A stretch of 64,000 nt of DNA. Source: a virus. The translations under genes were made by a program, and so were the position numbers. The DNA lies in the IMG/VR virus record IMGVR_UViG_3300022562_000520, positions 1 to 64,000 of that record; one strand, 5' to 3'. This document shows positions 2,930 to 3,895 of the stretch, one piece after another; positions within the stretch are counted from its first letter, which is position 1, and each line of letters begins with the position of its first letter. Under the pieces are notes generated by a model that was given only the letters and a program-made list of their open reading frames with translations, was not told the DNA's origin and did not search any database.

Positions 2930-3895
2930 AAGGTTGAGATTACACCTTTACTGCCTGTACCTTTGTGTCATTATCCCATCACCTGCGACAGTTAGGGTTC
3001 TACACTTATCCACGCCCCCATGGGGTGTCTACAAGCATGACTGCCTTTTTTGAAGTGTGGCGATTCACTTGTCGCGTAAAGCTATTCAAGGTTTCATCTA
3101 CCGTCTGCCTTGCGAGCAGTCAAGAGGGGCCTCCTCACCGTGCGACTCTGCCTTAATGCCCTTCACCTTGCGGGTTCCAGACAACTACATTCACCGAAGT
3201 GTGTAGTATTAAGCCATTTTCACCTTACACCGGACGCGTCTTTGCGTTTTTCATGTAAAAGATAGTTGGGGTTGAACCAACAGTCTTCTGCGTCTAAAGC
3301 AGATGCCTTACCATTAGGCTATATCTATAACTAGCGACGATGTGCGCGTCCAGTAGGTTCGCGATCTTTTGGATCACAAAATGCTACACACCACGTGTCT
3401 TTCCCCTGCCGAGTACTTGACCGTTTGTCAAGATCACTGGAACCTACCCGTCTTAAACGGGGTCTACGGAACCAACAACCTTTAAAACTGAAACAACGCC
3501 CTTGATTGCGGTCTTGGACTATTTGTTCCTACCCTTTATCCATCATGGCTCGTGCTTTGGTCTATCTGGGGACGGGTACCAGCCGTTCTTCATTCGCTCG
3601 TGTTCCCTGCTAGCCCAAAGGCATAACAGGCACTTAAACAAGTGTTCTTTCCCAAATTAGCACTTCCCCCAATACATCCGGCGCTCTTTTCACCGAACGA
3701 CCCTTTCGGGCAGGATGAGGCTTGCGTTTGTTTACCATTTCTGGCGGTGGTTAAGCTAGATCCCCACCTTTCCCCCTGTTACCAAGGTTTATGCCCAAAC
3801 GCGGCAATTCTTTAACATGATGGGAATCAAGTCCCACTTTACTCGACGCTCGCCCGAAGGTTTGTGTCTTACACACCAGATAGTGCTACATGTCA
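2930..3895 (-). ncRNA. large structured non-coding RNA, GOLLD-like (ends approximate)
   Basis: ~970 nt without a credible ORF, GC-richer than the flanks, many short stems with GNRA/UUCG loops (CCCGAAAGGG, CACTTCGGTG, CTGCTCGCAAGGCAG), internal tRNA-like domain, phage tRNA-cluster context; family assignment from size, context and architecture only. Confidence 0.7.
3257..3328 (-). tRNA. tRNA-like domain embedded in the large ncRNA, anticodon TAG, atypical for Leu
   Basis: D arm GCCT-AATGGTA-AGGC, anticodon arm TCTGC-TTTAGAC-GCAGA, T arm GTTGG-TTCAACC-CCAAC; weak AT-rich acceptor stem with a U-U mismatch, short variable loop, followed by ACA instead of CCA. Confidence 0.75.

Follow-up and report, generated by a model that had tools for sequence, protein, structure and literature searches.

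A phage GOLLD RNA gene whose linker holds a tRNA-shaped module with an apparently inverted anticodon loop

Introduction

GOLLD RNAs are among the largest structured RNAs of bacteria and phages. Two have solved structures: the env-38 RNA (833 nt) forms a 14-mer cage (PDB 9MEE) and the Streptococcus agalactiae RNA (700 nt) a 12-mer (PDB 9L0R) (PMC12990946). In the cage the linker between the domains of each RNA faces the interior, and tRNAs lying in this linker have been described before (10.1101/2024.12.08.627333). A Mycolicibacterium GOLLD, for example, has a tRNA-Phe in J13/15 (PMC12990946), and the pseudo-tRNA in the M. aubagnense GOLLD gave no excised product on a Northern blot (PMC6582537). 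Here we analyse a GOLLD gene with such a linker tRNA that lies near one end of a 64,000-nt stretch of viral DNA, below called the window. The window is the first 64 kb of the 100,293-bp IMG/VR virus record IMGVR_UViG_3300022562_000520 (CheckV completeness 31%); the record is a fragment of an uncultivated jumbo phage, and a search of sequencing runs places this phage in marine sediment. A sequence-only reading of the window had proposed a GOLLD-like RNA at 2930-3895 that carries a degenerate tRNA inside a closing helix, and the present analysis follows up that proposal.

Results

A full-length GOLLD RNA gene

An Rfam scan of the whole window gave a single GOLLD match (RF02032, 3394-2931 on the minus strand; 198 bits against a gathering score of 150 bits, E 2.3e-54), which covers model positions 1-416 and is not truncated; of the three tRNA matches in the same scan, the one at 3328-3257 falls within it. 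The sequence-only reading had called the family by resemblance and had named GOLLD, ROOL and intron models as the check; of these only GOLLD appeared. No group I or II intron, ROOL or other family matched at E <=1 in a permissive Rfam rescan of 2880-4000, apart from a sub-threshold snoRNA hit that is probably due to chance, and introns and ROOL had no match at gathering score anywhere in the window. The region is a full-length RNA gene of the already known GOLLD family.

The Rfam match (2931-3394) corresponds to the conserved 3' domain with its variable linker, and its first hairpin (model 1-62; 3335-3394, minus strand, in the cmscan alignment) contains helices 1 and 2, both of which covary. 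Since the Rfam model spans only this conserved 3' half of GOLLD, the variable 5' domain (3395-3815, minus strand) was delimited by nhmmer homology, with homologues at loci L255, L381, L203, L240, L154, L247 and L241. The window's 5' domain (3815-3395, ~420 nt) could be aligned with those of six other phage GOLLDs, and for the seven sequences RNAalifold predicted 92 pairs, 63 of which show compensatory double changes. A minimum-free-energy fold of the 5' part alone was uninformative (z = -0.84), so the case for structure in this domain rests on covariation. Thus the ORF-free structured region of the sequence-only reading does resolve into a GOLLD match and a covarying 5' domain that reaches to about 3815, both on the minus strand.

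Relatives were gathered from IMG/VR and JGI metagenomes by short conserved patterns and ranked by nhmmer. When the whole RNA was compared by blastn with the fetched loci and the INPHARED phages, only Xanthomonas phage XacN1 and one locus were found; blastn is too insensitive for divergent GOLLD RNAs, and patterns, nhmmer and Infernal were therefore used instead. The patterns themselves differed in value: the 15-mer AAAGGTGTAATCTCA was too unspecific (GOLLD in only 7 of 48 records), a tRNA-arm pattern had no matches in the first metagenome scan, and the scan with CTGCSTCTAAAGCAG returned mainly noise but did yield L381, which together with L255 is the closest relative of the window's GOLLD. The window belongs to a subfamily of 34 loci (counting itself) that has an extra hairpin of roughly 30 nt between the GGAUAAG and AUAAU motifs.

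Hallmarks of GOLLD are evident at this locus. The RNA is encoded by a phage (an IMG/VR virus record) and sits beside tRNA genes, with three free tRNAs within 3.2 kb according to ARAGORN; GOLLD relatives are also located in tRNA arrays. It has a variable linker, and a tRNA is inserted there between model positions of about 62 and 130. The window's GOLLD thus has in common with the env-38 and S. agalactiae examples of RF02032 the 3' domain, a structured and variable 5' domain, the linker, and a phage site near tRNA genes; it differs from them in its extra ~30-nt hairpin, in a 135-nt 5' leader, and in a gene for ribosomal protein bS21 immediately downstream.

The tRNA-shaped module in the linker

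The embedded module (3257-3328, minus strand) has the orientation of the GOLLD RNA and folds as a class-I cloverleaf of 72 nt. Its Rfam tRNA score (RF00005) is 64.8 bits against a threshold of 29 bits, and ARAGORN reports it as tRNA-Leu(tag). It has U8, a D-loop AAUGGUA with G18G19, a 5-bp anticodon stem that closes a 7-nt loop UUUAGAC with U33 and A37 (anticodon UAG), a variable loop of 5 nt, and the T-loop UUCAACC. Its acceptor stem AUAGAUA/UAUCUUU contains a U2-U71 mismatch and a single G-C pair, the discriminator is U73, and no CCA is encoded; two of the phage's three free tRNAs do have an encoded CCA. This cloverleaf parse agrees with the features listed by the sequence-only reading, namely intact D, anticodon and T arms, a weak acceptor stem, and neither a CCA nor a long variable arm. 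Its word "degenerate" suits the weak acceptor end only, because the body has the top score of all linker tRNAs examined and the weakness is confined to that end.

Bacterial tRNA-Leu has a class-II long variable arm and an A73 discriminator, which are identity elements for leucyl-tRNA synthetase. With a 5-nt variable loop and U73 the module is therefore no normal tRNA-Leu, as the sequence-only reading had suspected, and the features of a working Leu isoacceptor are absent from it; moreover, its orthologues have the anticodon CUA on the same body. To our knowledge no bacterial identity set fits U73 together with an acceptor stem that is rich in A/U and mismatched. A demand for a CUA decoder was considered as well, and the low frequency of the CUA codon in this phage (5.4 per 1000) speaks against it. 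An intramolecular kissing loop was considered and rejected, since the anticodon loop has no complement of at least 5 nt elsewhere in the window's GOLLD; the L255 GOLLD has one 5-nt complement to its own anticodon loop, which is unremarkable.

In position and orientation the module is like those of the linker-tRNA GOLLDs of Mycolicibacterium and M. aubagnense. It differs from the published linker tRNAs in its amber-suppressor-type ancestry and in an anticodon loop that is inverted relative to its orthologues.

Apparent inversion of the anticodon loop

The closest relatives, L255 and L381, carry an orthologous module that has the D, anticodon and T stems and the 3' acceptor strand in common with that of the window; L381 has one compensatory change in the T stem. 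Both have the anticodon arm TCTGC-CTCTAAA-GCAGA, which reads amber codons with CUA. The window's arm, TCTGC-TTTAGAC-GCAGA, matches this arm at 12 of 17 positions when compared directly and at 16 of 17 when compared with its reverse complement. The simplest history indicated by these alignments is that the window's UAG arose by a single stem-mediated inversion of the hairpin loop plus one substitution at position 38, and CUA would be the ancestral anticodon by parsimony over the three lineages. Such an inversion keeps U33 and A37 automatically and changes the anticodon CUA into its reverse complement, UAG. An assembly error can be dismissed as the source of the flipped form, since one contig of a second, independent marine-sediment study is identical to the window over 3105-3501. 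In a control comparison, the loop CUCUAAA is preserved without change between the free suppressor tRNAs of the window and L255, which are only 77% identical overall.

Template switching at inverted repeats is known to invert hairpin loops (quasipalindrome mutagenesis), both in non-coding hairpins of chloroplasts and in E. coli. The present case has in common with these an unaltered stem around a loop turned into its reverse complement, and differs from them in that it affects the anticodon arm of a tRNA. The end-for-end flip of the anticodon loop relative to the two closest relatives is the new detail here, no literature search having been aimed at inversion.

Linker tRNAs as a class

A tRNA occupies the linker in only 4 of 122 loci of a broad viral GOLLD sample, and in about 15 of the 22 distinct sequences of the window's extra-hairpin subfamily. 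The subfamily's linker tRNAs have Rfam scores that range from below threshold up to 64.8 bits. The linker anticodons are diverse (Lys CUU and UUU, Cys, Thr, a class-I "Ser" GCU, Asn, Trp, Ile, Phe, UAG twice, and CUA), and there are abnormal anticodon loops of 6 or 8 nt or with G33 or C37.

We compared 18 distinct linker tRNAs with 485 free tRNAs from the same contigs. The acceptor stems, parsed by a procedure that is crude but identical for both classes, have a mean of 0.72 G-C pairs in the linker tRNAs and 3.1 in the free ones (Mann-Whitney p 1e-8). Abnormal anticodon loops are found in 4/18 linker and 11/485 free tRNAs (Fisher p 0.001), and a CCA is encoded in 3/18 and 232/485, respectively, a difference that is suggestive and not decisive, given that one of the three free tRNAs of the window's phage has no encoded CCA either. 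The linker tRNAs thus have weaker acceptor stems and more aberrant loops than free tRNAs, which fits a tethered mimic better than a stored tRNA.

The anticodon arm also varies within groups of related linker tRNAs. The near-identical GOLLDs L264/L291 and L294/L265 differ in having GAU (Ile) or GAA (Phe), and in one variable-loop base. Within one cluster the anticodon arms are about 50% identical and the other parts of the tRNA 84-88%. The linker tRNAs of L275, L263 and L270 have common acceptor, D and T arms with unrelated anticodon arms (UAG with C37, GUU, and CCA with G33, respectively), and all three end in ACCG instead of ACCA.

A family-wide helix closes the linker

The sequence-only reading had noted two complementary segments that bracket the tRNA, and these do form a helix: the 5' strand ACUGGACGCG (3345-3354, minus strand) pairs with the 3' strand CGCGUCCGGU (3229-3238, minus strand; written 3238-3229 in the direction of the RNA) in 10 pairs, one of them G-U. 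The 5' strand is the 9-nt 3'-side bulge of the first Rfam hairpin (model 45-53), and the 3' strand lies where the linker ends, just past the conserved AAACGCAAAG motif. In a MAFFT alignment of 20 GOLLDs both with and without a linker tRNA (alignment A3), all 8 core pairs of the helix show changes on both sides, and 75% of the cells are paired, some MAFFT slippage notwithstanding. For the three-helix structure (29 pairs) in these 20 GOLLDs, the observed covariation was reached by none of 500 shuffles and by no slid control. Strand pairs at this place in relatives include ACAAACAACG/CGUUGUUUGU in L212, UUGGCCAAG/CUUGGCCA in L154 and AUUGGAAGUG/CACUUCCAGU in L381.

The closing helix is also found in members that have no tRNA (L203, L240, L024, L140 and XacN1). 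This real, family-wide helix therefore shuts the variable linker generally and is no device for displaying tRNAs. The view of the tRNA as an internal, displayed domain accordingly holds insofar as the tRNA lies in a helix-closed linker, and fails insofar as the helix is not specific to GOLLDs with tRNAs. The closing helix crosses the basal stem of the Rfam hairpin, and as both of these helices covary they form a pseudoknot.

GOLLD sequences in RNA libraries

A rhizosphere metatranscriptome (run X4) contains 44 contigs of diverse GOLLD relatives that are 80-99% alike to the window, and they align only within 2956-3793. Two of these contigs, which stem from relatives, bridge both tRNA junctions, a weak hint that the tRNA stays embedded. 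The flanks at 2600-2928 and 3822-4000 are uncovered, which is uninformative, as these contigs belong to other phages. Runs X1 and X3 yielded fragments only, and no RNA run of this phage itself was found. The X4 GOLLD contigs have summed depths of up to about 270, and soil RNA pools may be rich in GOLLD RNAs. In addition, one loose end in X4 passes into Illumina adapter sequence some 11 nt past 3784, close to where the 5' end of the conserved core is placed.

Promoter, leader and extent of the RNA

A sigma-70-type consensus promoter (TTGACA, 16-nt spacer, TATAAT; hexamers 12/12) lies at 3957-3984 on the minus strand, directly past the stop codon of an upstream 118-aa ORF, and L255 has an equivalent distal promoter. 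We infer a transcription start near 3950. Similarity to L255 and L381 begins sharply at ~3815 and extends to 2931, which gives a conserved core of ~885 nt. Between this core and the start lies a lineage-specific 5' leader of 135 nt (3816-3950, minus strand), unconserved in relatives, in which an A/U-rich 10-bp hairpin (3931-3908) is followed by a U-run. L255 and L381 have a TTGACA-N17-TATAAT promoter right before the core. In the window a 16-nt deletion there (3816-3870 compared with the relatives) takes out the -10 element and leaves a TTGATT remnant. Since the proximal -10 is lost, the distal promoter would be the one used in the window, and the transcript would carry the 135-nt leader. Thus, of the extent 2930-3895 originally proposed, all but its upstream end belongs to the conserved GOLLD core; 3895 is the end of the G+C-rich part of the leader and no family boundary.

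Gene neighborhood

The gene for the phage's ribosomal protein bS21 (2687-2902, minus strand; Pfam Ribosomal_S21, E 5.9e-16) has its start codon (2902) 28 nt past the GOLLD 3' end (2931). No terminator-like site was detected between the two, and GOLLD and bS21 are therefore probably co-transcribed. A free-standing amber suppressor tRNA follows (CUA, G73, encoded CCA; 2607-2680, minus strand; Rfam and ARAGORN), and next in the window's gene string, which GOLLD heads, are genes for a 166-aa protein and for an HNH nuclease. L255 and L381 have this order in common with the window (RNA ligase or 118-aa ORF, GOLLD, bS21, suppressor tRNA, 166-aa ORF and HNH nuclease), with 44-84% protein identity. The GOLLD-bS21 adjacency is kept in all three syntenic phages (bS21 at L255:2056-2277 and L381 about 2701-2829, both minus strand). 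The adjacency may be meaningful, since published work connects OLE, another ornate RNA, with bS21/RpsU, and GOLLD with ribosome pull-downs (10.1101/2024.12.08.627333).

Further observations were made in this neighborhood and in those of other GOLLDs. The window has an RNA ligase (Pfam RNA_ligase with a PHA02142 OB-fold) at 5846-6988 (minus strand), near the tRNA/GOLLD cluster, and in L381 an RNA ligase is directly upstream of GOLLD; this position suggests a tRNA-repair function in the GOLLD neighborhood. L255 has an additional 206-aa ORF (L255:1431-2051, minus strand) between bS21 and the suppressor tRNA, without counterpart in the window, that has a PP-loop motif (SGGxDS) and looks QueC-like by eye. 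The window's ORFs agree with the standard code despite the free amber suppressor tRNA: stop-codon recoding was considered and rejected, since dropping TAG or TGA as a stop lengthens the ORFs no more than expected by chance. In the published genome of XacN1 (L002, AP018399.1), a 2.5-kb stretch without annotated features, by two tRNA-Sup genes, contains a GOLLD that is not annotated (227 bits; about 38570-38983) and a tmRNA-like sequence that matches the permuted and beta tmRNA models (about 37177-37596). Finally, a group I intron match (L252:12532-12733, minus strand; 64.9 bits) lies within the tRNA array of another GOLLD-bearing phage contig.

Discussion

We think it likely that this locus is a GOLLD gene whose linker holds a tethered tRNA look-alike and not a working tRNA-Leu. 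The RNA would be read leftward from the promoter at 3984-3957 and, by homology with the two solved structures, would self-assemble into an RNA-only cage of 12 to 14 subunits, with roughly a dozen tRNA-shaped modules facing its lumen. The module would descend from an amber-type (CUA) tRNA whose loop was inverted by a hairpin-mediated event and then acquired one substitution. More likely than not, it stays covalently embedded and acts through its shape; its L-shape would then probably be selected for recognition by a partner or by a processing enzyme that recognises tRNA shape. We favor tethering because the acceptor end is poor, because no aminoacylation identity set known to us fits, and because reversal of the anticodon has been tolerated; the phage's own suppressor tRNA, the low usage of the CUA codon, the mycobacterial Northern blot without a product, and the junction-bridging contigs argue in the same direction.

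Several points weigh against this reading or limit it. Assembly of a cage is deduced from homology, the parsing that underlies the acceptor-stem comparison is crude, and the X4 contigs, being from other phages, neither prove transcription nor reveal RNA ends. The module has a canonical tRNA body (U8, G18G19, UUCAACC, U33, A37, 64.8 bits), and it could be released by RNase P and RNase Z and then receive its CCA by addition. Some linker tRNAs look fully functional, as for example the tRNA-Lys(CUU) of L156 with its encoded CCA, and the GAU/GAA switch between near-identical GOLLDs is what selected decoders might do. Finally, the L255 and L381 modules agree at 17 of 17 positions of the anticodon arm and are only 83% identical over the remaining tRNA, which hints that the CUA arm is under constraint in these two phages and thus that the arm is not drifting freely everywhere.

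These points bear mostly on the alternative that the embedded element is a working tRNA gene and GOLLD its precursor or store, from which the tRNA would be released by RNase P and RNase Z, completed with CCA, charged and used in decoding, reading UAG in the relatives and CUA/CUG in the window's phage, while the closing helix holds the two halves of GOLLD together. We regard this as unlikely, though it deserves to be taken seriously: the canonical cloverleaf and loop geometry with its 64.8-bit score, the perfectly kept CUA arm, the CCA encoded by 3 of 18 linker tRNAs, and the canonical loops that are retained through anticodon switches among near-identical GOLLDs are all as this alternative would have them, the closing helix could indeed keep the halves joined after excision, and an "inhibited storage" idea has been published (PMC12990946). 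It has difficulty with the U73 and A/U-rich, mismatched acceptor of the module, which fits no bacterial identity set known to us. Were the module to read CUA with an identity other than Leu, 147 CUA codons (the number in long ORFs) would be mistranslated, and yet the flipped form persists in two independent samples. The phage already owns a separate amber suppressor, RNA-library contigs of relatives bridge both junctions, and the mycobacterial GOLLD pseudo-tRNA gave no excised product (PMC6582537).

The flipped loop could also be an antisense trap for the phage's free amber-suppressor tRNA, such that the cage offers 12-14 docking sites and buffers or times amber suppression. Six contiguous bases of the loop UUUAGAC can pair with the suppressor loop CUCUAAA, GOLLD cages use kissing loops and their linkers face the lumen, and GOLLD, bS21 and the suppressor tRNA form a single conserved gene string; however, any inversion of an amber-type loop creates such complementarity automatically, which deprives it of statistical weight, it is absent in L255 and L381, and the position-38 substitution cuts the pairing from 7 to 6 bases. 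We give the trap very little credence. A related idea has a similarly slim chance of being right, namely that the linker tRNA is an exchangeable display module with the anticodon arm as its working surface, as the point switches, arm replacement and inversion might be read, and that the flipped loop docks the amber suppressor in the cage; if it were true, GOLLD would be tied to the phage's amber-dependent gene control. It is hardly credible, finally, that the region is a composite in which a structured RNA upstream, a normal tRNA gene, and another RNA or an intron downstream are independent of one another. Phage tRNA arrays do often interleave small RNAs, and the leader at 3816-3950 is lineage-specific, but one Rfam model (1-416) spans both sides of the tRNA, the helix that bridges the tRNA covaries, no intron or other family was detected, and the only promoter- or terminator-like signal inside the region is the T-arm of the tRNA.

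The locus amounts to a natural experiment: the phage has persisted although the anticodon of its linker tRNA was changed to the reverse complement, which argues that the coding meaning of the anticodon is dispensable. The window's GOLLD represents no new class of RNA and refines the known picture of this family. In three syntenic jumbo phages GOLLD heads a probable operon with bS21 and an amber-suppressor tRNA, which links it to translation control, and this gene setting points to a role for GOLLD in the manipulation of translation or tRNA metabolism during infection.

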